Part shown: positions 6,133 to 29,036 of the stretch, piece by piece
How the letters are laid out: each line of letters begins with the position of its first letter
Numbering within the stretch: the stretch's first letter is position 1
Source: a bacterium
GTDB taxonomy: Bacteria; Acidobacteriota; Blastocatellia; HR10
DNA length: 64,000 nucleotides
Direction of reading: 5' to 3'
Assembly: GCA_041640655.1 (NCBI GenBank)
Contig: JBEPZV010000001.1
Location: 32,001-96,000 of the forward strand
Program-made: the position numbers and the translations under genes
The notes under the pieces: model-generated
The model's input: only the letters and a program-made list of their open reading frames with translations
Told to the model about the DNA's origin: nothing
The model's database searches: none

Positions 6133-6145
6133 TTTACCGACCTCC

Positions 6146-8704: not shown

Positions 8705-8736
8705 AGTATAAACTCTGGAGTTGAGTCTTGAGTCAA
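8705..8736 (-). promoter_or_regulatory. MerR-family (ZntR-type) promoter with 20-bp spacer, dyad partly decayed
   Basis: TTGACT-caagactcaactccagagtt-TATACT. Confidence 0.7.
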
Positions 8737-11028: not shown

Positions 11029-11044
11029 ACTCCCGCAACGGCGA

Positions 11045-11554: not shown

Positions 11555-11660
11555 AGTCTTTCCTCCTTTCGTTGATTTTTTGCTGAGCCGTTTCCTGTCA
11601 TGCTCGAAGCGAATCTCTCACTCATCACCAATAACGTTCTACCACTGGTCCTACGCCTCC

Positions 11661-12029
11661 TTAATGGGCGCAGCAGGCGTCGTCGGTGATCGTCGCGGGT
11701 CGCCGCTGCGCCTGGCTTTCATACAGCAGCAGAGCCTTATGCACCCAGGCTTCGCCCGGGCAGCCGCCCATCGCCATCGCGACGTTCAGTATCTCGATCA
11801 TCTCTTCCCGCGTGACGCCGAGAGCGATCGCTTTCTCGACGTACATCCGCACGCACGGCTCGCACTTGATGATGGTGGAGATGGCCAGCGCCGTGAGCAC
11901 CTTCACCTTCGCGGGAAAGAGACCATCGGCATAGGCGACTTCCCGAATGCGAGCCAGGGCGTCATGAATCTCAGGACTCAACTCTGCCAAATCTACGGTG
12001 ATCATTCCCGTTCTTGTGTCTCTCGCCAT
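11661..12029 (-). CDS. Carboxymuconolactone decarboxylase/AhpD-like protein
   Basis: KVKVLTALAIS...CEPC...GVTREEMIE; C-terminal CCAH. Confidence 0.85.
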   Translation of the reverse strand: MARDTRTGMITVDLAELSPEIHDALARIREVAYADGLFPAKVKVLTALAISTIIKCEPCVRMYVEKAIALGVTREEMIEILNVAMAMGGCPGEAWVHKALLLYESQAQRRPATITDDACCAH

Positions 12030-12127
12030 CTTTTCTCCCTCCGAAAATGTTCCTGCGGCGCAAGCTCGACAGCTTGCGCTCCCTCTCTCCTCTCCCGGTT
12101 CGGATCAACCGGAGAAGACGTTCACCG

Positions 12128-13012: not shown

Positions 13013-13039
13013 GGTTTGTACCCTCCATTGCTTGTTCGT

Positions 13040-13496
13040 TGAGAGAAGCCCCGAAGAAAATGCTCGATGACCGGACAGGCTTTGTTGTCGGCGATAGCCC
13101 ACTCGCAGGTGGCTTCGTATCCCGCCAACTCGCGCCTCCGTCGGGGGTGAGCGCAGCATATCGGCGGTGCCGATCCTCAAGTTCCCTCGTTCGCCACCTA
13201 TGAGAGCAGTGATCCGAGTCCGTCGGCTCGGCCCCGACCGGCGCGCCGATTTCCTCCAGCGTGAACCCGAATCTCCTGACCCGCTCGATCAAGGTGATCC
13301 GTTCGATCACGCGCGGGCACTCCACGCGATTCGGAGATCGCGTGGGGACCCCGTTCGGATCAAAGAGACGATAGCCGCTCCGGCTCCGCGCCGCTTGAGG
13401 CCACAAGCCCCGTTGCTCAGAGCAACAGAGCCCGCCCCGGCTGACGCCGCTTCGCGCCTCCACCTCGCCGATCTTGAGCCCGGCCTTGTCCGTCAT
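13040..13496 (-). pseudogene. MerR-family regulator, degenerate and frameshifted paralog of 17851-18291
   Basis: LKIGEV...RSRSGYRLFD...FGFTLEEI; HTH decayed, 14-aa insert, C-terminus lost by frameshift. Confidence 0.75.
13315..13352. repeat. Palindromic element, in-frame 42-bp insert in the merR pseudogene
   Basis: Reverse complement GGGGTCCCCACGCGATCTCCGAATCGCGTGGAGTGCCC. Confidence 0.85.
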
Positions 13497-13516
13497 CGCT
13501 CGGTTCTCACGCTCCG

Positions 13517-13548
13517 AGTGTAAGCCCTGGAACGAACTCCAGAGTCAA
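13517..13548 (-). promoter_or_regulatory. ZntR-type MerR promoter/operator
   Basis: TTGACT-ctggagttcgttccagggct-TACACT, 20-bp spacer with dyad. Confidence 0.8.
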
Positions 13549-13574
13549 GGGCCTTTTGGACGAGACCGACCCTC

Positions 13575-13689
13575 GGGGTTCCCACGCGATCCCTCCGATC
13601 GCGTAGGGTGCTCCCGGCGTGTGTCCGGTTCTCATGCTCCAAAGGGACGACGTGATGGAGTACCCATCTCTAGATCGCCTGGGGTGCCC
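13575..13689. repeat. Two degenerate intergenic copies of the palindromic element
   Basis: GGGGTTCCCACGCGATCCCTCCGATCGCGTAGGGTGCTC and ...TAGATCGCCTGGGGTGCCC. Confidence 0.7.
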
Positions 13690-13933
13690 TTCATAGCCCG
13701 GCGTAGCACGCTGGAGAGGCAATGGTTCGGTTCGATCAAGTCCCCATCGGAAACGCCATCAATCGCCTTCCCGACGGTTTTTATTTCGCCGCTTCGGGGC
13801 TCCAATGATGAACCGGTGGCTTCTTCAGCGTGGTGGGCTTGGGCTCTTGCAGGTCCCCCTTTGGGGGCCGAAGACCCCTCCACCTTCACACTCAACCCGG
13901 ACTTTCCGACCTCCTCCCGGTGAACTAACCGGG

Positions 13934-14467
13934 TTATTGGTTGGGGCGTTGTGATGTTAAGTCGAAACTCTCTACGGCCAGGACGAACACGCCGTCTTTT
14001 CGTTCGAGCAGTTTCCCCCTCAGCGTGACGTCCTGATTCTGAATTCCTTCTGTTGCCTTCAGCTTCCTGAACTGTTCGTTCTTGGCGAGTACGAACACCT
14101 CTCCAGCGTTTCGGGGTCTAATGGTCCACTCCTTCGAGGTTGAGTTGACCCGCCCAATGACCGTGATTTCGATCTCTTTGACGGGATCAAAACCCAACTC
14201 GTCCTTGAGCACCGAGAGGATTCTCCTCACCTCGAAGGGAGTTTGGGCGCTGGCCTCAAGCTCAACAACACCGGAGCGCGAATAAGTGGCCTTTTCGACG
14301 CCAGCCTGGCGCCGGAGCGCAGCCCTCATCGTCTCCGGTCAAAGGAACTTCAGGGACTTATTCGCTCCGACGTCCCCGACAACCGTGAGGCGAATCGGCG
14401 CCTCCTGTGCTCCCACTGGTAAAGAGGCACAAAACAAGAGCAGTACGATCATTGAGACCCTCGTCAT
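13934..14467 (-). CDS. Putative selenoprotein: exported HMA-like protein, U43, 177 aa
   Basis: ORFs 14339-14524 and 13934-14329 share a frame, separated by one TGA (14339-41): KFL-U-PETMRAALRRQAGVEKA; homologous to 21017-21580; hairpin CGGCGCCA-GGC-TGGCGTCG. Confidence 0.75.
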
Positions 14468-14616
14468 AATCGCCCCCTCCTCAGAAAAGAGTGGCGCAGA
14501 CTTCAGTCTGCGCGAGGTTTTCATCGTTTCTGGGCGTCCTCATGGACGCCATGGATAACTCCCCGAAACTCATAAGTCTGGAGAGAAACCCGGCAGCTCG
14601 CTTCACCCGACCGATC

Positions 14617-15015
14617 TCATCGGCCGCAGGAATTCCCCCGCCAATACTTTCCCCATACTCGTTCCGGCAAGAGAGTCAACGCGCAGCCGCCCAGGATCAC
14701 GGCCAGGCCGATCCCCATCCACCCCGTGGCCGAGAGCGACACCAGCCCCACACCGTGAGCCAAAGAGACGCCCGCCCCGATCAAAAACAACGGCCCCGTG
14801 AAATAACAATGCACTCGCCCACAGCGAGCGGCATTCACAAGGCATCCCGCTCCGGCTACACCAAGCGAAACCGACCAGAGCACCGCCCGAAGGCTCGGGC
14901 TTGTGAAAAAGCCAACGGCGAAGACCGCGAGCGGCAGTTTCCATACAATCAGCGAAACCCACTTGCTCGCGACGAGATCTTTCGGCTCAGCGCCACCACA
15001 ACAGTCTGCACTCAT
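14617..15015 (-). CDS. Small Cys-rich membrane protein (mer-operon type)
   Basis: N-terminal CC, CLVNAARCGRVHCYFTGP, about 4 TM. Confidence 0.7.
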   Translation of the reverse strand: MSADCCGGAEPKDLVASKWVSLIVWKLPLAVFAVGFFTSPSLRAVLWSVSLGVAGAGCLVNAARCGRVHCYFTGPLFLIGAGVSLAHGVGLVSLSATGWMGIGLAVILGGCALTLLPERVWGKYWRGNSCGR

Positions 15016-15024
15016 GGCTTCACC

Positions 15025-15552
15025 TCACGTCTCCGTCACGGCGTAGCCATCGGGCATCGGGGCCGCGACAGCTTCCTCCCGCCTTCTTGTCGAATCCGAT
15101 CGCTTCAGCGCTCTGAGCACAACCCCGGTCACCACGCCGAGGCAACACCGGCCCGACGGATTCATGATCTCACAGGCGCATCGGCCGGCCTTGACCTGCG
15201 CCTTGATGTAATCGGGAATCGTCGTTCGTCCCGTCGCCGCGATCTCATCGCGCACCATCTTCTCCGTGACGCCGAAGCAATAGCAGATCGGCACCGGGTC
15301 TTCGGTCTCCTTCACCCCCACCCGCACGCGCACGTCACTTTTGTAGAAGTACGCGTCGGCCTCGTTGGAGAAGTACACGACCGGACACGTGGGCGTCGCG
15401 CAGAAGAAGTGGGGATGATCGGTCAGACGCGCTACCGCCGACTCCACAAGCAGATGCTCCATCGTCCGCCGCGTGACGGGCTTCCCCTTCCGCCCACACA
15501 AGCGGCAGTGGGCGGAATGGACCACGATCGGCACCTGGCAACATTCGGACAT
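15025..15552 (-). CDS. CopZ Zn-binding / BFD-like [2Fe-2S] metallochaperone
   Basis: CRLCG, FFCATPTCPVVYF, PICYCFG, CACEIMNPSGRCCLG. Confidence 0.85.
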   Translation of the reverse strand: MSECCQVPIVVHSAHCRLCGRKGKPVTRRTMEHLLVESAVARLTDHPHFFCATPTCPVVYFSNEADAYFYKSDVRVRVGVKETEDPVPICYCFGVTEKMVRDEIAATGRTTIPDYIKAQVKAGRCACEIMNPSGRCCLGVVTGVVLRALKRSDSTRRREEAVAAPMPDGYAVTET

Positions 15553-15588
15553 GCGTCTTTCACCTCCTTGAGCGACCGGGCTCGTCTG

Positions 15589-16941
15589 TCAGACCATGTA
15601 GCTCACGTCTGAGCAACTGCTCGGATAGGCATAAGGCATCCGCTTCAGATCAGCCGCGCGAAGCCCCAATCTAATGGCCAGGCCAAACAGATTGATGACC
15701 TCCTCGGCATGAGGCCCCAGCAAATGCGCGCCGAGAATCCGATCGCTCCCCTCCTCGACGAGCACCTTGAATCCTGAATGCGTCATTCCCACTCGGCGCG
15801 ACGAATACCAGCCGGATGTATCCTCGCGCTTGACCCTGAACGTCAACCCCTCCGCGCGAGCCTTCTCTTCGTGCAACCCCACCGATGCCAGAGGCGGGAT
15901 CGTGAAGACGACCGTGGGCACCCCCGTGTAATCCGGGCGGCGGTGATTCCCTTCGAGGAGATTACTGGCCACGACCTGCCCTTCGATGGCGGCCACAGGC
16001 GTCAGCGGCGGGCCGCCGCTCGCCGCCACATCGCCGGCCGCGTAGACCGCCGGATTCGAGATGCTCTGGAGATATTCGTTGACGAGGACGCCTCGCCGAT
16101 CGCTCGCCACGCCCGCCACGTCCAGGTTGAGATCCTCGATGTCCGGCGCGCGCCCCGCACCGTGCACCACGAGATCGGCTTCAAACGTGTGCTCCACGCC
16201 TCCAGCGCGAGCCTTCACGATCAGGCCGCCCGATCGCCGCTCGATGGCCTCAACCGAGGTGTCGAGTCGAACGTCTATGCCGATGTCTCGCGTCGCCTGC
16301 ACGAGTCTCTCCACCAGATCCGGATCGAACCCTTTCAGCGGGCGCGACCCGCGATGGAGGATCCGAGCGTGAGCGCCCGCCCGCGCCGCCACATGCGCGA
16401 ACTCGAAGGAGATGTATCCTCCGCCGACGAAGACGATGCGCTCCGGGAGCCGGTCCAACTCCAGGAAGTCATCGCTCGTCGTCAGGAACTCTTCACCCGG
16501 AATCCCGAGCCGGGCCGGGCGCGCGCCCGTCGCGATGACAACATGCCGGGCCACCAACTCTTCATCCCCCACGGCCACAGCCGTCGGAGCCACGAAGCGG
16601 GCTCGACCGTGCACGGTCACGATCCCGGCTTGAGCGAATCGCTTCTCTCGGTTTTCCGGAATCGGATCGGTAAACGTGCGCTTGAAGCGCATCAAGTCCG
16701 ACCACTCGATCCGACACCCATCCGAGGCGATCCCTTTGCCCGTCATTCTGCGCGCCCAGTCCACGACTTCGGCGGCTCCCACGAGAACTTTCTTCGGATC
16801 GCAACCGCGCAAGGCACACGTCCCGCCAAACGGCCTCGAATCAATGACGGCGACGCTCCATCCGGCTGCCCGACACCGATAGGCCACCGTCGCAGCCGCC
16901 GTTCCCGTCCCGATGACGATGAGATCGAATTGTCGCCCCAT
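15589..16941 (-). CDS. Pyridine nucleotide-disulfide oxidoreductase (glutathione reductase/MerA class, no C-terminal CC)
   Basis: IVIGTGTAA, GGTCALRGCDPKK, VGGGYISFE, YAAGD, AYPS. Confidence 0.9.
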   Translation of the reverse strand: MGRQFDLIVIGTGTAAATVAYRCRAAGWSVAVIDSRPFGGTCALRGCDPKKVLVGAAEVVDWARRMTGKGIASDGCRIEWSDLMRFKRTFTDPIPENREKRFAQAGIVTVHGRARFVAPTAVAVGDEELVARHVVIATGARPARLGIPGEEFLTTSDDFLELDRLPERIVFVGGGYISFEFAHVAARAGAHARILHRGSRPLKGFDPDLVERLVQATRDIGIDVRLDTSVEAIERRSGGLIVKARAGGVEHTFEADLVVHGAGRAPDIEDLNLDVAGVASDRRGVLVNEYLQSISNPAVYAAGDVAASGGPPLTPVAAIEGQVVASNLLEGNHRRPDYTGVPTVVFTIPPLASVGLHEEKARAEGLTFRVKREDTSGWYSSRRVGMTHSGFKVLVEEGSDRILGAHLLGPHAEEVINLFGLAIRLGLRAADLKRMPYAYPSSCSDVSYMV

Positions 16942-16952
16942 GATCGCCTCCC

Positions 16953-17801
16953 TCACAGGACGGCCTTGAAGCCGGTCCTGTTGATCGCGTCGGCCACCTG
17001 CTCGAGCGTGACGCGTGCCGGATCGAACGTCACGACGGCGTGCTTCTTCTCGACACTGACCTCTACAGCCTTCACCCCATCGCGCCGCATGAGCGCCTGC
17101 CGGACCGACGCCGCACACCCGGCACAGGTCATCCCTTCGACGGGAATGGTCGCCGTCACGGCCTCGATCGTGAAGCCGGCTTCCTTGACCGCCTCCACAA
17201 GCTTTTCTAACCGGATCCGCTCGGGATCGTACTCGACCAGGGCTTCGCCCTTTTCGTAGCTGGCCGTCGCCGAGCGCACTCCGGGAAGAGCTCCAAGCGC
17301 CGACTCCAGAGCGGCCGCGCACCCGCCGCAGGTCATGCCGCCGACTTCCAGCCGCACGGGGTCCCCACGCGATCCGGAGATCGCGTGGGGTGCCCGCACG
17401 CTTATCGGCCGCTCGACCGCAGCCGATGCGACCGATCCCCCTTGCTCCTTCGACGGACCGTTCAACGCCGCCCAGAATCGCCCGGAATAATAGGGAAACG
17501 CGGCAAAGAGCACGATCACGACCGTAGCGATCCACAGGATCGTCTTCTGCCATCGCGAGGCCTTCCTGGTCGCGCATGCCCCATCGGCGCACGCCGCCTC
17601 TTTCCGGCGATAGGTGAGATAAAACGCCGCCGCCAGCAGCGCGAACGTCACGACGAGCAAATAGGGTCGCCACGCCTCGAAGGCGGCCGCCGCGCCGAAA
17701 CTCCCCAACCCCACGACCGCAGCTACAATCGGCCCCAAGCAACAGAGCGAAGCCGTGATCGCCCCAATGAGCGAAGCTCCAAGTGCGATCTTCTCCCTCA
17801 T
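16953..17801 (-). CDS. MerT-like transporter fused to two HMA domains
   Basis: TASLCCLGP, CADGAC; GMTCGGC and GMTCAGC. Confidence 0.9.
   Translation of the reverse strand: MREKIALGASLIGAITASLCCLGPIVAAVVGLGSFGAAAAFEAWRPYLLVVTFALLAAAFYLTYRRKEAACADGACATRKASRWQKTILWIATVVIVLFAAFPYYSGRFWAALNGPSKEQGGSVASAAVERPISVRAPHAISGSRGDPVRLEVGGMTCGGCAAALESALGALPGVRSATASYEKGEALVEYDPERIRLEKLVEAVKEAGFTIEAVTATIPVEGMTCAGCAASVRQALMRRDGVKAVEVSVEKKHAVVTFDPARVTLEQVADAINRTGFKAVL
17358..17395. repeat. Palindromic element in-frame in HMA strand 1, flanked by CCGCACG direct repeats 42 bp apart
   Basis: GGGGTCCCCACGCGATCCGGAGATCGCGTGGGGTGCCC; CCGCACG at 17352 and 17394. Confidence 0.9.
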
Positions 17802-17819
17802 CGTCCCTCCTTTCACACG

Positions 17820-17839
17820 GGGGTCCCCATGGGGCGCCC
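17820..17839. repeat. Short form of the palindromic element, intergenic
   Basis: GGGGTCCCCATGGGGCGCCC. Confidence 0.6.
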
Positions 17840-17850
17840 CCGACATCCCT

Positions 17851-18291
17851 TCACTCCCGTTTCCGCCCCCGCCGGGGCTTTGACGCGCGAGAGGAAGGGT
17901 GAAGAAAATCCTCGATGACCGGACAGCTCTTCCGCCCGGCGACGGCGCGCTCGCACTCGGCCTTATAGGCCGAGAGCTCGCGACGCAATCGTTTGATCTC
18001 CTCGTACCGCCGATCGAGATCCTCGAGCTTGCGCGCGATCACCTGCAGAACCTCCGCGCACGTCCGCGGTTCGGCCGTCGGTAATTGGAGCAATTGTTTG
18101 ATCTCCTCGAGCGTGAAGCCGAAGCTCTGCGCCCGCTTGATGAAGCGCAGGCGCTCGATCACGCGCGGATCGTACAGCCGATACCCGCTCTGCGTCCGAG
18201 CAGCTCTCGGCAAAAGCCCCAACCGTTCGTAGTAGCGGAGCGTATCCACGCTCACGCCACATTCGGTGGCCACCTGGCCGATCTTCAACAC
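17851..18291 (-). CDS. Heavy-metal-responsive MerR-family regulator
   Basis: LKIGQVA...TLRYYERLGLL...GYRLY...GFTLEEIK; Cys in TCAEV, AECE, SCPVI; GTG start after GGAGG. Confidence 0.92.
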   Translation of the reverse strand: MLKIGQVATECGVSVDTLRYYERLGLLPRAARTQSGYRLYDPRVIERLRFIKRAQSFGFTLEEIKQLLQLPTAEPRTCAEVLQVIARKLEDLDRRYEEIKRLRRELSAYKAECERAVAGRKSCPVIEDFLHPSSRASKPRRGRKRE

Positions 18292-18325
18292 CGCCGCTTC
18301 CCCTCCGCTCGTTTTCACAACCGCC

Positions 18326-18357
18326 AGTATAAACCCTGGACCTATCTCCAGAGTCAA
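18326..18357 (-). promoter_or_regulatory. ZntR-type MerR promoter/operator
   Basis: TTGACT-ctggagataggtccagggtt-TATACT; dyad ACTCTGGA/TCCAGGGT. Confidence 0.85.
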
Positions 18358-18536
18358 GCGAAAGCTTCAGGTGTGCCACCCCAAGCCAGGCACGAGCGGT
18401 TCCCTGGCGGCCATCGCATCTACAGCGATGACGTGCCGATTGCGTATCACCGAATATGTCGAGCGGGGTCTCGCCGGCGCGTGAGTTCGAGCTCCATCGT
18501 TTCACCCGAACATGGGTGACTTGTTGAGTCGCCCCT

Positions 18537-20720
18537 TCAATTGGGTCGGCGCGCGCGTTCGATCGCCTCCAGCGCTGCTGCCAACCACTTCTCGCCCTGG
18601 CCGCCGAAGCCCACCTGCTCCAGGACCACGGTGCCTTCTTGACCGATCAGCCAGCTGCGCGGGATGCTCACAAGCGGCAAGACGCTCTCCACATACGAAG
18701 AGGCCGGGATGACCGGGAAACTGAAGCCGTGCTTGTTGACGTAAGGCTCCACCAATCCGAGATCCGCATCCACGTTGAACGTCAGCACGAGCACATCCGG
18801 GTGATCTTTCAGGCGTTCATAGAGCTTCTGCACGTAGGGCAGTTCCTCGCGGCAGGGGCCGCACCACGTCGCCCAGATATTGATGAACGTGATCTTGCCT
18901 CGGAGATCGGCCAGCCGCCAGGTTCGTCCTCGAAGGTCTTGAAGCTCGAAATCGGGAAGGGGCATCTGGCGCTCCTCCCATGCGCCGGGAGAGGCTTCCC
19001 CAATCGGGGCCGTTGCCCGCGCCAACCACGCATGCCATCCCTCAGTCGTTCCCCCAAGCTCTCTCCACAAGCGCTCGACTCGCTTCGTCAGGTCTTCTCT
19101 CGATGCGCCTCTCTCATCCGGCTCGGGCCCCTCCAGCAGCGCCTTTTGATAAAAGGCGAGGGCATCGAGCTTTCGGTTTTCGGCCTCGGCCAGCCGCGCC
19201 ATCCACTCCCAGTAGATCGCCTGACGTCGAGCGTGGAGGCGCTTTTCTTCGCTCGGAGCCGACTCTTGCGGTCTTCGCCGGACCAGAAAGTCTTCCATCT
19301 GAATGAGCACTTCGCGCGCCTTCTCCCGCCGGTTCATCTTCAGGTAGGCGTCGAGCAAGATCGGCCATCCGCGCCAGTAGCTGTAGTCCACGTTGCCTTG
19401 AAGGGCTTTTTTCGCCTCGGCCGAAAGGTCGTCGCGTCGGACGTCCCGCTCCGTTCTCCGTTCGATCTCGCGGAAGCCGCGCTCAATCAGTTCCGGGATG
19501 CGTTCGAGTCGAACGCCGCGCTTGAGATAGAGCTGAGCGACCTGAAGGGCCGGGGGCGGCAGGGCATAAAAGAGGTCGGACTGTTTTTCCGAAGCGCTCA
19601 GCAGGCGCTCGCCGATCGTCTCGATCTCGACAGAAGGGAGATCGTCCAGCTCGCTCGCGGCCTCAAGTCGTCTCAGCCATGGAGCGGGATGATCGGGCCA
19701 GCGCTGAATCCATTCCTCGGTTGCGCGGAAGAGGGCGCGATAGTACGCTCGACGCTTCTCCGGAGGGTCGGTCTCGCCGGGGCGAGGGTGAGCCGCGTTC
19801 CATCGGTCGTAGACGATGAGGGACATCACGCCGCTGGAGTGAGGGAATCGGCGCAGCATCTCCTCTTCCACCCAGCGAAGGCCCTGGGCGTCGCCGGTCA
19901 TCTCGTAGCCCGTGCGAAGCGTCAAAAGCCCGCGCAAGGTGTTGCCCAGCCCCAGATCGCGCAATCGCGTGAGGTCTTCTGCGATCTGTTTTCGGAGCCG
20001 CGGATGTTCCGTCACGGGCTTCGCCTGGAACTCCAGTCGCCACAGGGTTTGGTAATAGGAGAGGTCTTCGGGATCGGTCCGGCTCCGAAGCCGTACGCGC
20101 AGCTTTTGGGCGGCCTCGGCGAGGAACTCCCGATCGTCCATCCGGCCGGCAAGCTCATACGCCTCCACGCTCGAGGGGCAGAGCCTCATGAACGTCTCCA
20201 GATGGGCGCGCGCTTTCTGCAGATCTTTCCAGGGGCCCTGCAGATGGATTCGGGCCAGCGCCAGGTGAGCCAGCGGGAAGTCGGGCGCTCGCTCGATGGC
20301 CTTTTCGAGAAGCGCGATCGCCAGGTCGGTCTGTCGGCCGATGAGGCTGTTGCCGTACAGGTACAAAGCGAGAGGATCATGGGGCTGTCGTTCGAGTCGT
20401 GCCTTGTACTCGGCGATCAGCGAATCCAGCTCATCGTCCATGACCTGCTCGATGAAGCCCAGGTAGCGACGGTGGACGAAGGGATCGTCGGGAAATTGTC
20501 TCAACAGGGGGCGCAGGATGGCCAATCCTCGCTCTCGGCGTTGCTCTCGTCCCGTGCGCGCGTCATCATCGAAGGACAATTTCCGGAGGGCCAGTTTTAC
20601 TTCGGGAGATGGCTCACAAGGAGAGTTCACCGCTTGTGGCCACACAGAGGCTTTAAGCGTCACGGCGAGGACGCCGCTTAAAACGACCTGTCGCCACGTG
20701 ATCTTCTTGTTGGCCTTCAT
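18537..20720 (-). CDS. Exported TPR/helical-repeat protein with C-terminal TlpA thioredoxin domain
   Basis: Signal peptide, TPR-like repeats, NIWATWCGPCREE. Confidence 0.85.
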   Translation of the reverse strand: MKANKKITWRQVVLSGVLAVTLKASVWPQAVNSPCEPSPEVKLALRKLSFDDDARTGREQRRERGLAILRPLLRQFPDDPFVHRRYLGFIEQVMDDELDSLIAEYKARLERQPHDPLALYLYGNSLIGRQTDLAIALLEKAIERAPDFPLAHLALARIHLQGPWKDLQKARAHLETFMRLCPSSVEAYELAGRMDDREFLAEAAQKLRVRLRSRTDPEDLSYYQTLWRLEFQAKPVTEHPRLRKQIAEDLTRLRDLGLGNTLRGLLTLRTGYEMTGDAQGLRWVEEEMLRRFPHSSGVMSLIVYDRWNAAHPRPGETDPPEKRRAYYRALFRATEEWIQRWPDHPAPWLRRLEAASELDDLPSVEIETIGERLLSASEKQSDLFYALPPPALQVAQLYLKRGVRLERIPELIERGFREIERRTERDVRRDDLSAEAKKALQGNVDYSYWRGWPILLDAYLKMNRREKAREVLIQMEDFLVRRRPQESAPSEEKRLHARRQAIYWEWMARLAEAENRKLDALAFYQKALLEGPEPDERGASREDLTKRVERLWRELGGTTEGWHAWLARATAPIGEASPGAWEERQMPLPDFELQDLRGRTWRLADLRGKITFINIWATWCGPCREELPYVQKLYERLKDHPDVLVLTFNVDADLGLVEPYVNKHGFSFPVIPASSYVESVLPLVSIPRSWLIGQEGTVVLEQVGFGGQGEKWLAAALEAIERARRPN

Positions 20721-21016
20721 CGTGCCCTCCCGATCGGAAGGAACTCTGCCAGAAGATAATGCCACATTCAAGCGCGGCGAGGCTATGTACGTCACCGGCT
20801 CGACAAGGGCTGCCGCCATGGCACGTGAGGCATCGAACCAGGGCGTTCCGTCGTGCGGCGGCACTCGGGCCTGTCTGCCGACAGGCGGATGACCGTGATG
20901 GCCGCCGTGCTCTCGCATCCTGGGTCAAGGGAGAACCCTTGCTCTTCGCCTTTTCGAGCGCGTTATTGAGAGGGTTACTTTTTGCGCCGCGGCTCTAGAG
21001 CTCGCTCGGACTCAGA

Positions 21017-21580
21017 TCAGATTCCCCGCCGCAACAGGCGCAACACCACTTTCCCGCCAAGTCCAAGACCATCCTCGCCCAATGGCTCAAAGTTCTCAAC
21101 GGTGAGACCGGGCGGACGATCTGCATGGCTGGGATGAAGCTTCCCAGTCACGCGGATTTTCTTCCCCACGAGGTCAGTCCGTTTGCTGAGTGCGGCTGCC
21201 TCTGCTCCACCGGCCAACACAAACGGATGGTCCAACCCGGGAACATCGAGCGTCGGGAATTCTCCCTGCGCAATCAATGTCCCATCAACCACCACCACAA
21301 TAGCGGCTGGGGTGAAGCCCGCATCCCGGAGCGCCTGGGGGATCCGAACGGGATCGAAGGATTTTCCGGGCCGGGGAAACACCTCCACTTCTCCTCTCGC
21401 CAGGTTCACGTCGGCACGATCAACGCCTTCCAGGCGCTGGAGGGCTTTCTGTGCCCCTCGCGCTCAAAGGGGACAGAAGAGGCCGTCAATTTTAACCGTC
21501 GCCCTCACCACCTGAGCCGATACCGGCGCGGCGGAAAAAAAGCCAAGCAGAAGCAAAAGCCATAGGCTTGGTCTGTTCAT
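21017..21580 (-). CDS. Putative selenoprotein: exported HMA-domain protein with CxxU (C36-P-L-U39), 187 aa
   Basis: MNRPSLWLLLLLGFFSAAPVSA-QVVRATVKIDGLFCPL-TGA(21464-66)-ARGAQKALQRLEGVDRADVNL, in frame with ORF 21017-21409; hairpin CAGCGCCT-GGA-AGGCGTTG. Confidence 0.88.
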
Positions 21581-21635
21581 CAGCTTTCTCATGTTCAAAC
21601 CCTCCGAAGAAATCGGGTCGCGTCATCCGGAGCTC

Positions 21636-22649
21636 CTAGAACAAAAATCGGAATCCGAGAAGAAAGGTCGAACCAGGCTCCGGTTGCCTCCCGTTGAGGG
21701 CCCGGACGACCGGAATCGGAGCCGAGAATTCGACCAAAAATCGGTCGCTGAGGAAGTACTGGATTCCCGGTGAGACCGAAAGCGTCGTCCCGCCGGTGTC
21801 AGGCACTTCCTTGCCCTGGCGGCGGGCGCGAGCTTGCCAGGTGCCGTTCATTTCCACGACGAGATACGCCCCATGGCGGAACAACCGATCAAGGGCCCTG
21901 CGCGGCCACCCGGCCCGAGCGCCTGCCGCCACGTTGTTCGATGAGATGACAAAGCGCGACAGCGCGGCGTCAAACCGGAGCCGGTCGCCCACGGACAGAC
22001 CCCCGCGGTTCTTGGTCGCATGAGTGTACTCGAAATCGCCACTGAAGACGTACTTCAACCTCACCGCCTTCTGGAAGATCATCCCGCCGGTGTACTCGAC
22101 CGCCCCCGTCGAGAACCGGTCAGCGCCCGTCGGCACCTGCAATCCAAAAACTCCCGACAGCCGCGTCATCCCACCGGGGGCGTTGCGACTGTAGAGCCCA
22201 TCGTACTGAACGAACACTCGCGCGTCGGCCAACCCACTCACGCGCTCTCGCTCTGCTTCACCTCCCATCCGATGGGTCACATCTACGATCGCGTAAGGCT
22301 GAGCCAGGATGACCATCCAGCCCGGAGAAAATCCGTAGACAACGGTCACCGCCGGAACATACTGAGTGACGCCGACCGATCCTTCCTCCATTCGAAGAGA
22401 AGAATGCCGAATTTCAACGGATGAGCGGATGAGCGTCGCCCGATTGAAGAGCGTCCGGGCGCTCGGCGCCACGATGGTCTGCGCGCGCCCGTCGGCCGAT
22501 GAAAGCCCCATGCCGCCGATGAGCACGAGCGCGATGCTCCAGGACGCCGGTCTCCGAAATCGCGCAGGCTTCCCGGCCGGCTTTCCCCAAGGCCCAGCCG
22601 TCGAGGCGAAGGCCGCTACAAATTCCGACGTTTCCGACCGACGCGGCAT
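21636..22649 (-). CDS. Putative outer-membrane beta-barrel protein (start uncertain)
   Basis: Amphipathic strands (SGLADARVFVQY, GLQVPTG, LSVSPGIQY), C-terminal Phe. Confidence 0.65.
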   Translation of the reverse strand: MPRRSETSEFVAAFASTAGPWGKPAGKPARFRRPASWSIALVLIGGMGLSSADGRAQTIVAPSARTLFNRATLIRSSVEIRHSSLRMEEGSVGVTQYVPAVTVVYGFSPGWMVILAQPYAIVDVTHRMGGEAERERVSGLADARVFVQYDGLYSRNAPGGMTRLSGVFGLQVPTGADRFSTGAVEYTGGMIFQKAVRLKYVFSGDFEYTHATKNRGGLSVGDRLRFDAALSRFVISSNNVAAGARAGWPRRALDRLFRHGAYLVVEMNGTWQARARRQGKEVPDTGGTTLSVSPGIQYFLSDRFLVEFSAPIPVVRALNGRQPEPGSTFLLGFRFLF

Positions 22650-22663
22650 GTGACGACCCGTTG

Positions 22664-22963
22664 TCAAAAGAGGCGGAGGCTCCAAAGTAAGGCCGAGACG
22701 CCCGTCCCCGCCCACACCGTGAAGCGAGCCGTTCGCCCTCCCTGCCCCTTCACGTTCACCAGATAATGCGCGCGCAGCAGAGCGTACACGGTGAGGGCCC
22801 CGAAGATCGCCTTCCCGCGGGCGAAGATCACGTGCGCGGCGACGGCCCCTGCTGTCCCGAGCAGGGCGAACACCGTTGGCGCCAGTCAGCACCAGGGGAG
22901 CGACGCCAGTACCGCCACCCCACTGCAGATCGGCCCCCACCGCCAAGCGCGCCGCTTCTCCAT
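22664..22963 (-). CDS. Putative selenoprotein: small MerT/MerF-like membrane protein with a CU pair (C25-U26), 99 aa
   Basis: AAGGAGG RBS, ATG 22963: ...AVLASLPWC-TGA(22886-88)-LAPTVFALLG..., in frame with ORF 22664-22873; hairpin CCCTGCT-CGGGAC-AGCAGGG. Confidence 0.8.
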
Positions 22964-23053
22964 CTCGGCCTCCTTTGATCCACCGGGGAGTGCCCGCGCA
23001 GACGCTCCCCGGGGCACCCACTGCGATCTATACTCGAGTAGTGACTGACGCCG

Positions 23054-23227
23054 TCACTTCTTCAGCGGACAGGCATCGCGGCAGATGATCTTGCCCGTGA
23101 GCGGGCAGACGATCCGACCCGGGCAGCTCGATGGGCTCTCGGACGATGCCTTGAACCCATAGAGCGCTCCCGATCCGATCGCTCCGCTCAACACGAGCAG
23201 CAACACGATCCGGCGCATTCGTCGCAT
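23054..23227 (-). CDS. 57-aa exported/anchored four-Cys peptide (below ORF-track cutoff)
   Basis: MRRMRRIVLLLVLSGAIGSGALYGFKASSESPSSCPGRIVCPLTGKIICRDACPLKK; GGAGG RBS at the end of merR. Confidence 0.75.
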   Translation of the reverse strand: MRRMRRIVLLLVLSGAIGSGALYGFKASSESPSSCPGRIVCPLTGKIICRDACPLKK

Positions 23228-23230
23228 CGG

Positions 23231-23680
23231 TCATCCCTCCTTTCCGTGATCTGGGCGGTGATGCCCGGCCAGCGTCATGATGAGCGAGCAGACGTAGGGC
23301 GAGGAGTCTGCTTGATCGGGCATCGCGTCCAGTTGGGCGAGCAGAGCGGATAGCTCCCGGCGAAAGGCTCGCAGTTCGGCGATCTTTCGATCCAGCGCCC
23401 GAAGCTTTTCCCGAAGCAAGGCTCGGACTCGCGCACATGGCGATCGCCCCTCGCGGCTGAGCATGACAAGCTCTCGAATCTCCGCCAGCGACAGCCCCAG
23501 CGCCTGCGCCGCTCGAATGAAGCGCAGCCGCATGAGCGCCGCCTCATCGTAGAGGCGATAGCCCGAACGCGTCCGCGCCGCCCGCCCCAACAATCCCTCC
23601 CGCTCGTAATAGCGAACCGTCTGAGGCTTCACCCCCACGGCCCGCGCCAGCTCGCCGATGTAAAACGTCCGACCCGACAT
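23231..23680 (-). CDS. Heavy-metal-responsive MerR-family regulator
   Basis: YIGELARAVGV...TVRYYEREGLL...SPCARV...YVCSLI. Confidence 0.92.
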   Translation of the reverse strand: MSGRTFYIGELARAVGVKPQTVRYYEREGLLGRAARTRSGYRLYDEAALMRLRFIRAAQALGLSLAEIRELVMLSREGRSPCARVRALLREKLRALDRKIAELRAFRRELSALLAQLDAMPDQADSSPYVCSLIMTLAGHHRPDHGKEG

Positions 23681-23704
23681 CTCACGCCTCCTTTCACACT
23701 CGCT

Positions 23705-23736
23705 ATTCTAAACCTTGCAGCCAACTGCAAGGTCAA
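23705..23736 (-). promoter_or_regulatory. MerR-type promoter with perfect 9-4-9 operator
   Basis: TTGACC-ttgcagttggctgcaaggtt-TAGAAT; ACCTTGCAG-TTGG-CTGCAAGGT. Confidence 0.85.
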
Positions 23737-23786
23737 GCCCCATTTTTCAGCGCGGGCAGAGGGAGCGCCCCTGGAGAGCTTCGGTG

Positions 23787-23830
23787 TGTAATCTCGATTA
23801 CTGAACGGCTCGGTCGGATGGCGTTAAGCT
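23787..23830 (+). promoter_or_regulatory. Crp-type site and -10 upstream of the TlpA/DUF3179/OsmC operon
   Basis: TGTAA-TCTCGA-TTACT; TAAGCT at 23825. Confidence 0.5.
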
Positions 23831-24594
23831 GGTGGCTCGATGCGAATTTCCGATCTCTGCGAATTTCCAATCTGCCGGAGACGATCATGACCGATCGAAG
23901 AATACCGGACGGCATTGTCCGAGGCCGGAACGCGAGGCCCTCCATCCGGCCGCGCCTACGGCCGACTATTTCGGCCCACACGATACTCTCGACAGCCGCG
24001 CTGAGATGCTCAGGAGCACGAGGGACCGTCCGCCTCTCGCATGCACGCGTTGTTGTGATCGCTGTCTCCCTGGTTGCCGGAATATCGTTCACTGCCGGCA
24101 GCAGGGGCGCATGGTCACGCGTCTCGGCTCATGATTCGACTCTCGCCGTTGCCGCCGACAAGGATGCTGATGAGAGGGGTCGGCCCGCGCCGGAGCTCGA
24201 GCTTGTGGATGTTCGCGGTCGCCCGGTGCGTTTGGCCGCCCTCCGGGGTAAAGTCGTGATCGTGAATTTGTGGGCGACCTGGTGCCCTCCCTGCGTGATG
24301 GAAGTCCCGACCTTCAAGAAGCTCCACGCGACGTATCGAGATCGGGGGCTGGAGATCATCGCCATCTCTCTAGACGAGGACGAACGAGAGGTCAAAACGT
24401 TCATCCGGGAACACGCCCTCCCCTACACCGTCATCCTCGGCGATGAACAGATCGCGGAGAAGTTCGGCGCGTTGACGGGACTCCCCATGACGTTTTTCAT
24501 TGATCGGAAAGGGCGCATCCGTGCCGAGCACGCCGGTTTCATGGACGAGGAAGATTTCGTCCGCGAGGTCGAACGATTGCTGTCGGAGCCGTGA
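23818..24594 (+). CDS. TlpA-family thiol:disulfide oxidoreductase (true start probably further downstream)
   Basis: NLWATWCPPCVME, GLPMTFFID. Confidence 0.85.
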   Translation: MALSWWLDANFRSLRISNLPETIMTDRRIPDGIVRGRNARPSIRPRLRPTISAHTILSTAALRCSGARGTVRLSHARVVVIAVSLVAGISFTAGSRGAWSRVSAHDSTLAVAADKDADERGRPAPELELVDVRGRPVRLAALRGKVVIVNLWATWCPPCVMEVPTFKKLHATYRDRGLEIIAISLDEDEREVKTFIREHALPYTVILGDEQIAEKFGALTGLPMTFFIDRKGRIRAEHAGFMDEEDFVREVERLLSEP

Positions 24595-24715
24595 TTCATC
24601 CCGGCTCCGCTTCTCCTCTCGATGATGCGAATGTGGTAGACTCATGTTCCGTGACTCGCCGAAAACGGCCGACACGGGGTACAGATCGCAAGGGATGCCC
24701 TGAAGGAGGTGAGGA

Positions 24716-25828
24716 ATGATCGTGACGCTTCGACGATTCGGCCGGCTGACCGCGCCGCTTGTCGCTCTGTTGACGATGGGACTTATGAGCGCTGCTTCTC
24801 AGTTCCAGAAAGACAAACTCTTTGTCGTCACCCAATTTCCCCCGGAGTTGAACGATCCGGAGTTCATCCCCGCCACCCATCCCGACGGTGGCTACCTGGA
24901 TGACACCGAGACGGTGATGGGCATTGCGCTCGAGGGAGAGAGCCGGGCCTATCCGCTCCGGATCATGGCCTATCATCATGTGGTCAATGACGTCGTCAGG
25001 GGCCGCCCCATCGTCCTGGCCTACTGACCGGTCTGCGGGACGGGAGTCGGGTTCGACTCCGTGACACAGCAGGGGAGGCGGCTCATGTTTAAGCCGCACG
25101 GATTGTACAACGCCGAACTCGTGTTCGCCGACACCGAGACGGGAAGCGTCTGGTCGCTGACGAGCGGCGAGGCGATGGAGGGTCCGCTCGCAGGCCAAAG
25201 ACTCAACAAACTCGCGGTCGTGCAGACAACCTGGGCGAAGTGGAAACAGCTCCATCCCGACACGCTGATCGTTTCCAACCGGACGCCCCATCAAGCCCAC
25301 TACAAGCCGTTTCGCTGGCAGCCGCGCCAGCTCAGCTCCGTTTTCGAGCGCACGCTCACGCATCGAGATGAGCGACTGGGAAGAATGGAGCTGGTCCTGG
25401 CGGTGGCCCTGGGCGATGAACGCAAAGCCTATCCCTTATCCACGCTCAAGCAAGCGGGCGGCGTGGTGAACGATGTCGTCGGCGGCGTGCCGATCGTCGT
25501 CTTCTACGATCCACAGACGAACACCGCCGCCGCTTACGAGCGCAAGCTGGGCAAACGGGTGCTCCGCTTCGAGAACGCAGATCGGCAGGGCGAACGGGCA
25601 CCCCACGCGACCTCCAGTTCGCGTGGGGACCCCATACGGCTCGAGGCGGTGGATACGGCGACGCGTTCCCGGTGGAACCTGGCCGGTCGCGCCGAGTCGG
25701 GCCGACTGCGCGGCGAGCAACTTGCAGCCGTGCCGGCTCACACGGGAGCCTGGTACGCCTGGGCCGCCTACTTCCCGGATACGAAGATTTACACCTCGGC
25801 CGCTCGTCAAAGGGAGCGCCAGAAGTAG
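24716..25828 (+). CDS. Putative selenoprotein: DUF3179-like exported protein, U104xxC, 370 aa
   Basis: RAYPLRIMAYHHVVND...PIVLAY-TGA(25025-27)-PVCGTGVGFD, in frame with ORF 25061-25828; hairpin GGAGTCG-GGTT-CGACTCC. Confidence 0.88.
25596..25633. repeat. Palindromic element in-frame in the DUF3179 gene
   Basis: GGGCACCCCACGCGACCTCCAGTTCGCGTGGGGACCCC. Confidence 0.85.
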
Positions 25829-25844
25829 AGGCATATGACTGCGC

Positions 25845-25882
25845 GGGGTCCCCATGCGATCTATAGATCGCATGGGGTGCCC
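25845..25882. repeat. Palindromic element, intergenic
   Basis: Identical to 5861-5898. Confidence 0.9.
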
Positions 25883-25990
25883 GAGCGCCCATGTCACGTC
25901 TTTCGCGATCGCCGCCATCGGGTGTTCAAGCGGAGGTTCACGGAAAGGGACTCCGCATTCGGCCAAAATAGATTATGTGGAGGTCAACCG

Positions 25991-26488
25991 ATGAACAGCG
26001 CTGTGGTTTATCGTTCGCGGGTACGGATTGAGCGCGTCGCGGGTCCGCTCCGGCGGGCTTATCTTCCGGCGGAAGCGCTGCCCGTTCTCTTCGGCGTCCA
26101 TTCCGAAGTCGCCGCGCACTACGGCGTTGATCCGCGTGTCCATGAACCGCACGCCACGACGCTCGATTATCTGGTGGCGGCGGCGGCGGGCTGACTCACC
26201 GGCACCTTCGGTGGCGCGCTGGAAGCGCGCGGGATCCCCGCCGGAGAAGGACGGCTCACCTCGGAGGCCACGGGCGAAGTGGAAGCCGACGGGCGCGTGC
26301 TCATCGTGCGGCGCATTCACGTGACGTATCACCTGCGCCTGAGACCGGACAAGCGCGAGGCCGCCATCCGGGCTCACGAAAAGCACGCCGAATACTGCCC
26401 CGTCGCTCGAACCATCGGCGGCTGCGTGACCATCACGACTTCGCTCGAGATGGAGGACCTCGCTGAGGATGCTGCCGATACCGGTTGA
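25991..26488 (+). CDS. Putative selenoprotein: OsmC/Ohr-like protein, U68, 165 aa
   Basis: TTLDYLVAAAAG-TGA(26192-94)-LTGTFGGALEARGI...HAEYCPVARTI; hairpin GCGCGCT-GGA-AGCGCGC. Confidence 0.88.
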
Positions 26489-26520
26489 GCCGACACCGGG
26501 GAGAAGTTCATTCGGCAGAG

Positions 26521-26559
26521 GAGTGCCCCATGCGATCTCCGAATCGCATGAGGATCCCC
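26521..26559. repeat. Palindromic element variant, intergenic
   Basis: GAGTGCCCCATGCGATCTCCGAATCGCATGAGGATCCCC. Confidence 0.75.
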
Positions 26560-26637
26560 GTGCGGTTTCTCCGCCGAAAGCCGGGGCGTGAGTCCTTTCG
26601 ACAGCATTTTCAGCAACCCCATGGTGGGAGGTCAACG

Positions 26638-27642
26638 ATGAAGACATCGGTTCTGATTGCCGCTCTCTGTTTCATGATGGGTCCGGGCGGGCTCATCGCG
26701 TTCGTTCAAGAGAAACAATACCTCGATGCGGGTCCGGGCCAGCGCCCGTTCGACGTCACCAAGCGCTCGGTTCCGCTCGAAGACATTCAAGGCGGCGGAC
26801 CGCCTAAAGACGGCATCCCGGCTCTCGACTCGCCCACATTCGTCTCGGCTCGCGAGGCCGAAAAATTCCTGCGTCCTTGGGATCGCGTCTTAGGCGTTTC
26901 GCTCGCCGGCGCGGCCAAAGCCTACCCGATCAAGATTCTCAACTGGCACGAGATCGTCAACGATCAGGTTGGGGATCGGCCCATTCTCGTCACCTGGTGA
27001 CCGCTCTGCAGTTCGGGCGTCGTGTACGACCCGATCATTGACGGCAAGCGATTCACCTTCGGCGTGTCGGGCAAGCTCTACAAGGCGGCTCTGGTCATGT
27101 ACGACCGCCAGACCGAGAGCCTCTGGTCGCAGCTCATGCAAGAAGCCATCGCCGGCCCGATGACAGGAGCGAAGCTCGCCATCCTGCCGAGCCTCCACAC
27201 GACGTGGGAGCACTGGCGGGCGCAACATCCTCAGACGCTCGTCCTCTCGCCCGAGACGGGATTCCGCCGCGATTACGGCTTGAATCCCTATCAAGAATAC
27301 TGGGAGATGGGCCAGCCGCCCCGTTTCCGGCGCCCGCCCAAAGAGAAGAAGTCGGATGTCAAACTCAGGCCCATGGAGCGCGTGCTCGGCCTCTCAGTGG
27401 ACGGCGTGAAGAAGGCCTATCCCTTCTCCGTGTTGAAGAAGAAGCCCGAGCGATTTGAGGATCATGTCAGCGGGAAGAAGGTCATCATCCACTTCGACAA
27501 AAAATCGGAGACCGGATACGTCACCGATGAGCGTGGGATTCTCATCCCTTCGATCGCGCTCTTCTGGTTCGCGTGGAGCGATTTTTATCCCGATACGGAG
27601 GTCTACGGCGAGGAGCCGTCACAGCAACAGCCGGTCCGCTGA
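26638..27642 (+). CDS. Putative selenoprotein: DUF3179-like exported protein, U121xxC, 334 aa
   Basis: GGPPKDGIPALD...KAYPIKILNWHEIVND...PILVTW-TGA(26998-27000)-PLCSSGVVYD...FGVSGKLY; hairpin TCGGG(C)GTCG-TGTA-CGACCCGA. Confidence 0.9.
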
Positions 27643-27699
27643 CATCCGGTAGGCCGCCCTGAAGAGGGCCTCCGGCTCACAGGGACGCGGGCGCAGCCG

Positions 27700-28230
27700 C
27701 CGCGCCTTCATCGAGCTGTCATCTTTGCGTGCAGGCATCATATCCCTTGGGAGGATCTCGCACGAATCAACGACGCCCTGCCCTCGAATCTGCCCACGCC
27801 GTTGGCGCGATGACCGTCACGGCCAAATCGCTCGGCGCAGGCATCCCGCTGCGCGGATCAATGATGTGAGCGATGCGCCGACCGGCCACTCGCGTCGCGT
27901 TCTCACATACGAATCGGAAGAGCCAATGGCCATATCGCTCAGCGCGAGCGTCAAGGCCATGCGCTCGGGCCGGGCCGGATCCCTCACGGAGACGCGCCAA
28001 GGACGATCATCCGGCCCCTTCCCCAGAGCGTAGATCGAGCTTTCGCCGAAGTTGATGAAGGCTCGCGCATGCCCCCGGGCGCGCGCGGCGCTACAGCCCC
28101 CGACGGAACATCGTCTCTCGCGACCGGCGCGATCTCAGGCGCTTGGCGTCGCCGACGCTTCACCGCGCCCCCAGCGATCTCCACGAGGCCGGCGATTTCT
28201 TCGTCTCCACCTCCGCTCACCTCCTCGGAA
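27700..28230 (-). pseudogene. ApbE (FAD:protein FMN transferase) remnant
   Basis: Fragments AFINFGESSIYALG and HIIDPRSGMP...VTVIAPTA in broken frames. Confidence 0.55.
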
Positions 28231-28235
28231 AATAA

Positions 28236-28306
28236 CCACGGATGCACACGGATCAACACGGATGGCTCCTGTGGAAATGTGGCACGGGCGTCCCGCCTGT
28301 GTGCCA
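28236..28306. repeat. CACGGAT x3 (period 10) plus a REP-like hairpin
   Basis: CCACGGATGCACACGGATCAACACGGAT; TGGCACGGGCGTCCCGCCTGTGTGCCA. Confidence 0.6.
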
Positions 28307-28649
28307 TTTTCATCGTGTGTGGCGTGCATTCGCACATGAGCGATTCCTGAGGGAGAAATAGCGCGACACCCGGGCGACAAGCAGCGGATGATTTGCTCCC
28401 GATGGGCCGATCCATGAGAGACGCCCTCGGCCGCGTCACCTCTCGACCCGCTCGACCTCCGCCTCCTCACCCGGCTGTCCCCTGCGCTGTCGGCGGTGAG
28501 ATCCCCTGCGCACCAATACTGCACCCACGACGAGCCGATGGAGCCAGGCACTCACGGTCACCCCGCTCTCGCCCGCCGTGGGGTCACCGGACGAGGGTTG
28601 ATCAGGACTCACACGGTCAAAAGCCGGAGGCGACGACGGTCATGCCGTC

Positions 28650-29036
28650 TCACTTGAGATCCGACTCGACGCGCAATCCATCGAGAAACTTGTTGATCCC
28701 CATGAAGAGATCCACGACGGCGAGGGCCTCCAGCAATTCTTCAGTGGAAACACCCATTCGTCGCAATCCCGCCGTATGAGCGTTGATACAGTATTCGCAG
28801 TTATTGACGGTGGAGACGGCCAGGGCCAGAAACTCTTTCGTCTTCGGGTCCAGCTTGCCCGGCCCCATGATCACTTTGAAACGATTCCAGCTCGCTTCGA
28901 GATAGGCTGGATGATTCGCCATCGCTCTGAAGAGATTCGGGACAAAAGGCAAATTAAAGGTGCGCTTGATGTCATCAAAAATGTCTTTCACCTTCCCTGT
29001 TGCTTGCTGTTCAGAAGTCAAAGGTACTGTTGCCAT
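28650..29036 (-). CDS. AhpD/CMD-family peroxidase-related protein
   Basis: VPNLFRAMA, TKEFLALAVSTVNNCEYCINAH. Confidence 0.9.
   Translation of the reverse strand: MATVPLTSEQQATGKVKDIFDDIKRTFNLPFVPNLFRAMANHPAYLEASWNRFKVIMGPGKLDPKTKEFLALAVSTVNNCEYCINAHTAGLRRMGVSTEELLEALAVVDLFMGINKFLDGLRVESDLK

Follow-up and report, generated by a model that had tools for sequence, protein, structure and literature searches.

What is the function of an operon that brings together a MerR-type regulator, an outer-membrane barrel and two small proteins whose in-frame UGA codons are very likely read as selenocysteine (Sec)? The question is raised by a locus of the 64,000-nucleotide stretch of DNA G000:C1:32001-96000, here called the window, which belongs to a 3.1 Mb assembly, 89.8% complete. 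In homologue searches, the closest named homologues of the window proteins come from Acidobacteriota, so that the source is taken to be an acidobacterium. An initial annotation, made from the sequence alone, described the operon as a selenium version of the mercury proteins MerP and MerT plus a barrel, and proposed a relay for Hg, Ag, Au or Cu formed by the barrel, a periplasmic CxxU chaperone and a membrane transporter carrying a Cys-Sec (CU) pair. Judged from the gene neighbourhoods analysed here, the conserved unit is a pair of genes, encoding the barrel and an exported selenoprotein made of an HMA and an OB-like domain, which recurs across Acidobacteriota. The chances are about even that the operon is a metal-induced module of the cell envelope which captures and relays soft metals.

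Conservation of the barrel-HMA pair

A barrel gene followed by an HMA-OB gene was found at 7/7 GTDB loci and at 27 of 34 metagenome loci; among the other seven, five loci stop within the barrel and two matches span 56 residues. In a phylum sample of 401 genomes the barrel is present in 15, and an HMA gene adjoins it in 12 of the 14 besides the genome under study. The reciprocal search with the HMA-OB protein hit 25 of the 401 genomes, and a barrel-like gene, weak in two cases, is located within 1.5 kb in 10 of the 15 genomes thus added. The pair is also carried, with HMA preceding the barrel, by two proteobacterial plasmids. The genomes are related, and all locus counts are descriptive.

Forty-one wide loci were compared, short loci and several duplicates being omitted and some near-identical loci remaining in the set. 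The pair was found in 38 of these. A merR gene is present in 20/38 pair loci, 17 have the gene of an exported NHL propeller next to the pair, and a MerT-like gene of a different type, with vicinal cysteines (CC), accompanies it in 16. The four-Cys peptide is found with the pair in 2/38 loci only, both of this genus, and small thioredoxins are further variable partners. The five-gene set (merR, four-Cys peptide, CU protein, barrel and HMA protein) highlighted in the initial annotation was accordingly rejected as a unit, since partners vary among the pair loci: the neighbourhood is conserved in other genomes, but what is conserved is the pair. The TPR-TlpA gene was found beside the pair only in this genome, in one congener and in two metagenome copies of this sequence, and it was rejected as a member of the module.

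Two small proteins found at these loci deserve mention. The CC-type MerT-like protein of L017 (5457-5939), present at 15 other loci as well, is a membrane protein of 160 aa featuring a second Cys pair; the L017 copy was matched neither by Pfam (E<=1e-9) nor by NCBIfam (E<=0.001). A Cys-rich peptide of 47 aa is encoded 5' of the pair at L017 (5222-5362), L018, L037, L038 and L041, and fits weakly the model of the copper metallothionein MymT (23 bits vs 80).

Organization of the operon

The features of the operon are listed in Table 1. The five genes were confirmed in the order, on the strand and with both UGA codons as initially annotated, and the TPR-TlpA gene follows on the same strand. From merR to the TPR-TlpA gene, consecutive genes are separated by 3, 90, 14, 43 and 296 bp. 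The promoter is likewise where it had been placed, with its 20-bp spacer and a perfect dyad (23712-23733) formed by two 9-bp arms separated by 4 nt. Matches to the pattern TTGAC-N21-TANNNT are four in the window vs 0.28 +/- 0.45 expected (100 shuffles). One of the other three, at 18357, lies ahead of a merR-like frame, one at 13548 ahead of a broken merR-like frame, and one is at 8736. Many related loci have a promoter of identical architecture 5' of them. A MerR helix-turn-helix and a long-spacer promoter with a central dyad, the sequence features of MerR-family metal sensors, are both present here.

Table 1. Positions of the operon features and of a related gene in the window
Feature	Position	Strand	Description
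MerR-type promoter	23705-23736	-	TTGACC, 20-bp spacer, TAGAAT
merR	23231-23680	-	149 aa, Pfam MerR families
Four-Cys peptide	23054-23227	-	57 aa, Cys35/41/49/53, hydrophobic N-terminus
CU MerT-like membrane selenoprotein (putative)	22664-22963	-	99 aa, C25-U26, UGA 22888-22886
Candidate SECIS hairpin of the CU gene	22847-22866	-	3' of the CU-gene UGA
Outer-membrane barrel, core gene 1	21636-22649	-	337 aa, C-terminal Phe, COG4313/PF13557
Exported HMA + OB-like selenoprotein (putative), core gene 2	21017-21592	-	191 aa, C40xxU43, UGA 21466-21464
Two tandem hairpins, candidate SECIS pair	21457-21441 and 21439-21421	-	3' of the HMA-gene UGA
TPR-TlpA redoxin	18537-20720	-	296 bp after the HMA gene
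Divergent exported HMA + OB-like paralogue	13934-14467	-	single UGA 14341, similar hairpin, profile E 1.3e-9

Probable selenocysteine at the UGA codons

Sec is very likely inserted at both UGAs, because the genome encodes the Sec machinery, the UGA positions align to Cys in homologues, and conserved hairpins lie downstream; these are the sequence hallmarks of bacterial selenoproteins. The machinery comprises tRNA-Sec and selA, selB and selD, the three genes scoring above cut-off. Among 24 related genomes selA was found in 22; selB and tRNA-Sec are present in the remaining two. At the UGA-containing motif, full-length homologues of the HMA protein read CxxC. In 52 distinct sequences this motif reads UxxU in 29, CxxU in 2, UxxC in 8 and CxxC in 13, one of the latter being an unrelated HMA picked up by the pattern. 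The exported CxxU HMA protein initially described is there, but most of the family reads UxxU, and CxxU, a minority form, is restricted to this genome and one congener; the second, OB-like domain of the protein had gone unmentioned.

The two tandem hairpins located 3' of the HMA-gene UGA are a candidate pair of Sec insertion sequences (SECIS). In 29 aligned sequences 95.8% of the cells are paired, with 13 two-sided changes, a figure somewhat overstated because the structure was drawn from the same sequences and these are related; none of 500 shuffles was as high, and slid controls gave 31-49% paired. A cleaner test is offered by the second hairpin, which is found in 31/31 genes having UGA at the second position of the motif vs 0/21 Cys genes. 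With two SECIS hairpins in tandem, UxxU could be decoded by a single short stretch. An Rfam scan of positions 11000-29000 gave no match.

In the CU gene the UGA is also followed by a candidate SECIS hairpin, and homologues of the protein read CU or CUU; in the CU-type protein encoded at L030:1617-1892 the CUU motif corresponds to two adjacent UGA codons. The first homologue search made with the CU protein retrieved only two fragments, both beginning 3' of the UGA. Codon changes past the UGA of this gene gave a mixed outcome, 11 being synonymous vs 7 non-synonymous in the comparison with one congener, and 3 vs 9 with another. The possibility that the UGAs are stops, and the genes pseudogenes, was ruled out by the conservation of UGA and hairpins across families and by constrained codon changes past the UGA.

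Folds and families of the encoded proteins

The barrel matches PF13557 with 37 bits (cut-off 22), and was modelled by AlphaFold2 (AF2) with a predicted local distance difference test (pLDDT) value of 76.6. Two structures are tied as fold matches, far above the next one: FapF (Z 25.9, root-mean-square deviation (rmsd) 2.2, 241 aligned residues) and the COG4313 channel Pput2725 (Z 25.4, rmsd 2.3, 239 aligned). Pfam match and 12-stranded fold together place the protein among COG4313/PF13557 channels.

The HMA protein has a signal peptide and a PF00403 domain (AF2 pLDDT 87.6). The fold of this domain was matched with Z 11.3 (rmsd 1.5, 66 aligned), and the matches include MerP (1osd), oxidised MerP being among them. 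As in MerP, an exported HMA fold carries a CxxC-type motif, here CxxU; unlike MerP, the protein has two domains, and scores 25.5 bits on TIGR02052 vs the 92.55 required. The C-terminal beta domain fits OB-fold chains at a middling level (Z 7.1, rmsd 3.6, 72 aligned) and is provisionally called OB-like on the predicted structure; a His is found near its end in 18/22 and 42/61 aligned members. The NF041115 model of UxxU proteins gives 36 bits here and 45-50 bits for UxxU relatives, with a cut-off of 95, and the NF045683 model of MerT/CopZ fusion selenoproteins gives 19-28 bits (cut-off 375). No NCBIfam model reached its cut-off for the HMA protein, the CU protein or their relatives. The divergent HMA-OB paralogue of Table 1 closes a neighbouring MerR operon, and no NCBIfam model matched it at E<=0.001. 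At L105, L106, L109-L112, L116 and L120, HMA-OB proteins form a separate branch which reads UxxC and has distant barrels of its own and a CC-type partner.

The CU protein features three hydrophobic stretches, the third of which is weak. C25-U26 aligns to the CC of the MerT paralogues of the window and, as in MerT, the two vicinal residues lie in the first membrane helix; no Cys is found after U26, and the second Cys pair of MerT is missing. PF02411 did not match at E<=0.05, and the score on NF033560 (merT_RC607) is 22.4 bits vs a cut-off of 130. Homologues were found in 5/40 relatives, four with one TGA and one, a weak match, without. From its sequence the protein is a distant relative of MerT and a variable partner of the pair. 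A small group of MerT-family CU selenoproteins has already been noted (bioRxiv 2022.07.06.499078).

In the alignment of the MerR regulator with 4ua1, a MerR chain of B. megaterium type, C82 and C130 correspond to the first and third Cys of that chain. The middle one of the three Cys ligands of mercury is missing, and the protein fits TIGR02051 with 98 bits (cut-off 150.85), remaining under the cut-off of every NCBIfam equivalog model. Among 15 MerRs encoded near the pair, three have all three Cys, three lack the first, a pattern which we take to be CueR-like, and the rest lack the middle one as in the operon under study. The four-Cys peptide is, on the evidence of its gene neighbourhoods, a merR-associated accessory outside the conserved core, as it recurs elsewhere beside merR genes with no pair in view; codon changes from a congener are 8 synonymous and 5 non-synonymous. 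ESM Atlas matches to this peptide score <0.8 and are leads only, and a match in G308 was discarded as a false positive.

Predicted docking of barrel and HMA protein

The method used to model complexes does not accept recoded (Sec) proteins, and the model was built on the natural Cys pair of the relative G011, with our own alignments. The complex scored 0.67 vs 0.02 for the best of 3 controls; at least 85% of contacts are shared between runs, and the pLDDT of the partner is 82. The score mark is reached by 116/157 solved complexes and 2/215 mismatched pairs, counts which are only rough with own alignments. The interface involves the HMA loop with both Cys and, on the barrel, the N-terminus, the C-terminus and short turns, the tightest contacts falling on a PGG turn conserved in the barrel family. 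From beta-barrel topology, the docked face would be the periplasmic one; in the solved COG4313 channel the N-terminal plug is placed at the periplasmic side (PMC4493636). That the score reflects the memory of a solved relative is less likely, because there is no close one by sequence: the barrel-family profile retrieved from PDB sequences FapF as the sole related match, and this was weak (E 0.07). The model supports the binding of barrel and HMA protein, and the barrel-to-HMA step of the relay initially proposed gains support from it and from the universal adjacency of the two genes.

Which metal, and in which direction?

Intact merA, as expected of a mer operon, was not found in this genome, 89.8% complete as said, in which TIGR02053 had no match at E<=1e-95. 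The merA gene at 5383-6210 (-), next to an Acr3-like gene, ends after ~275 residues, and no other copy was detected by tblastn. Full merA genes are found on the contig of the pair in the congeners G002 and G005. MerA scored above cut-off in 6/25 genomes, all belonging to the 23 pair carriers, 17 of which lack it. Within the 34 loci a merA tail was found in 4, merB in 1, merC in 2, CopA-type ATPases in 3 and Cus genes in 4; a glutathione-reductase-like flavoprotein without the MerA tail is encoded near the pair at 8/34. Because of the weak merA link, of the mixed Cys patterns of the MerRs and of barrels having no conserved Cys, Met or His in family alignments, the module looks, from sequence comparisons, general to soft metals and not mercury-specific.

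Genes, gene order, Sec signals, pair conservation and folds are read from sequence, and docking from the model; induction, the crossing of the barrel by metal, its transfer to the CU protein, the metal itself and the direction are what we infer. In the capture-and-relay reading, which we regard as evenly balanced between right and wrong, the MerR-family sensor would turn on the operon from its 20-bp-spacer promoter under metal excess, and the COG4313-type barrel would provide a narrow passage across the outer membrane. The HMA-OB selenoprotein would dock at the periplasmic mouth of the barrel, its Cys/Sec pair toward the channel, and would capture soft metals as they cross, either as Cu(I), Ag(I), Au(I) or Hg(II) or in the form of neutral or organo-metal complexes. 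The metal would then be handed to a lineage-specific partner, here the CU MerT-like membrane protein. Sec instead of Cys may serve tighter binding, or keep reactivity in the periplasm. The neighbours of the pair, being metal-handling genes (merA, merB, merC, CopA-type ATPases, Cus), argue for this reading. Several findings weigh against it. The barrels show no conserved metal ligands, as noted, and the solved COG4313 member is argued to pass hydrophobic, not polar, solutes (PMC4493636). The CU-type gene is intact in 7 and broken in 3 of the 38 pair loci, and 16/38 have no MerT-like partner of either type. In G112 barrel and HMA genes are on different contigs. The docking model was obtained on a relative whose proteins are 27% (barrel) and 31% (HMA) identical to those of the window, and conservation at the interface does not exceed the average (0.59 vs 0.59). 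Finally, an inward relay of toxic metal is hard to justify without intact merA in the genome.

The last point, and the loci having no MerT-like partner, would be accommodated if the selenoprotein were a periplasmic sink, or part of an outward route, holding soft metal or releasing it through the barrel, so that nothing enters the cytoplasm. MerR-family activators respond to metal excess, most carriers of the pair have no MerA above cut-off, merA is truncated here, and the docking geometry is compatible with either direction. Export would require energy, for which no source is encoded, and a MerT-like gene is kept in the operon in 22/38 loci, MerT-type proteins being stated to be importers (bioRxiv 2022.07.06.499078); we consider this explanation rather unlikely, though worth keeping in sight. 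An ordinary mercury-resistance relay in selenium form, with MerP and MerT equivalents feeding MerA, plus a porin, could be argued from the mer genes found at a few loci, from the full merA of the two congeners and from the three-Cys pattern of 3/15 nearby MerRs. It is improbable, given that the regulator lacks the middle Cys and the CU protein the second Cys pair, that all MerP and MerT models are far under cut-off, and that MerA is found in only 6/23 carriers. The label of selenium version of MerP/MerT overstated the mercury link for the same two missing features and for the truncated merA. What is supported of the relay initially proposed for Hg/Ag/Au/Cu are Sec, the conservation and the barrel-HMA step; the five-gene unit and the tie to mercury are not supported as stated.

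No better placed is a periplasmic redox relay, in which UxxU/CxxU would cycle as diselenide/selenylsulfide on a substrate delivered by the barrel, and metal binding would be incidental. TlpA redoxins, DUF3179 and OsmC selenoprotein candidates in the same island, the flavoprotein near the pair and the oxidised MerP among fold matches all speak for it, but the domain has an HMA and not a thioredoxin fold, TPR-TlpA is not a conserved neighbour, and the promoter and regulators are those of a metal-sensing system; this too we hold for improbable. Very improbable is a role of the barrel in secretion, as a FapF-like pore or anchor by which the HMA protein or NHL propeller would reach the cell surface. 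FapF is a tied best fold match and the sole, weak match among PDB sequences, and the NHL gene often adjoins the pair; in the model, however, a folded domain is docked by its metal loop, with no threaded chain, and the operon has no NHL gene.

Genes flanking the operon

The operon is set in a metal island with two further MerR-type operons, the truncated merA, the Acr3-like gene and several UGA-interrupted genes. The operon at 14617-18357 (-) encodes a three-Cys MerR, a MerT-HMA-HMA fusion (NF033556 above cut-off), a reductase without MerA tail, a Fe-S CopZ-type chaperone and a Cys-rich membrane protein of 132 aa without family match. At 12128-13548 (-), a third MerR-type promoter precedes an apparently frameshifted merR and a MerT-HMA fusion whose linker is long. 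On the other strand, two DUF3179 genes (24716-25828 and 26485-27642) have UxxC motifs with in-frame UGA and hairpins, and an OsmC-like gene (25975-26488) has UxxT with in-frame UGA and a hairpin; like DUF3179, this is a known kind of selenoprotein. A divergent TlpA gene (23818-24594) lies beside them. A 22-bp palindrome is present in four near-identical copies (5869, 17366, 25853, 29556), some of which fall within coding frames.

Relation to known systems and significance

On the features tested the module is not a member of the mer, MerP, MerT or Hg-MerR groups, and resembles a MerP/MerT-type relay extended to the outer membrane. It shares with MerP/MerT (TIGR02052, PF02411, NF033560) an exported HMA-fold protein with a CxxC-type motif, a small membrane protein whose first helix holds a vicinal pair, and a MerR-type promoter with merR as first gene. 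It differs in its constant partner, an outer-membrane barrel, in the Sec and the additional OB-like domain of the HMA protein, in a CU protein devoid of the second Cys pair, in the usual lack of merA, and in scores far under cut-off on all models. The listed parts of mer systems include no outer-membrane protein in the sections available of PMC8261052. Sec replaces Cys in HMA and MerT-type metal motifs also in the NF041115 and NF045683 proteins and in CU-motif MerT selenoproteins; in contrast with the NF041115 and NF045683 families, a signal peptide, an OB-like domain and the tie to a barrel are found here, and scores are under the cut-offs. The 12-stranded barrel with a short N-terminal segment (Z ~25-26) is common to the COG4313/PF13557 channels Pput2725, TcpY and SphA and to FapF. 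These are linked to hydrophobic solutes (COG4313, PMC4493636) or to amyloid secretion, whereas a metal-binding periplasmic partner or MerR control was not seen described for them in the literature consulted.

The PcoB and CusC/CusF copper routes also combine an outer-membrane barrel with a periplasmic metal carrier; PcoB is a fold match of the barrel (Z 14.2), and the His near the end of the OB-like domain is a further likeness. The barrel belongs here to another family, the carrier is of the HMA type with Cys/Sec, and the core has no resistance-nodulation-division (RND) pump or oxidase.

CU-type MerT selenoproteins and UxxU HMA selenoproteins have already been described separately, and PMC13188914 catalogues the UxxU protein NF041115 together with a putative selenoprotein of mercuric transport; the pairing with a barrel is apparently undescribed. 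In the 119-family table of that paper, compared by description only, no row is described as a barrel-linked HMA-OB family. Nothing on the barrel-HMA pair was met in the text available of PMC12013277, PMC13326102, PMC1976440 and PMC10455571, and the pairing was not found in the literature searched, a search which was in part loose and had BSepDB itself outside it.

The exported two-domain selenoproteins add a family missed by NCBIfam 20.0 models and held in databases as UGA-cut fragments. The natural series UxxU, CxxU, UxxC and CxxC can be used to probe the contribution of Sec to metal binding and the decoding of two close UGAs. Soft metals, mercury included, are usually pictured as diffusing across the outer membrane. 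A barrel to which a selenium-tipped metal catcher is fixed would offer a small two-gene system suited to test metal crossing and the role of COG4313 proteins. It is tentatively suggested, at somewhat less than even chances, that COG4313-type barrels capped by a docked HMA selenoprotein are dedicated outer-membrane portals for soft metals, possibly for neutral or organo-metal complexes. If so, the pair would provide a stage at the outer membrane for which mer-type systems have no described counterpart, and this stage would be reused with sensors of Hg type, Cu type and two-Cys type.

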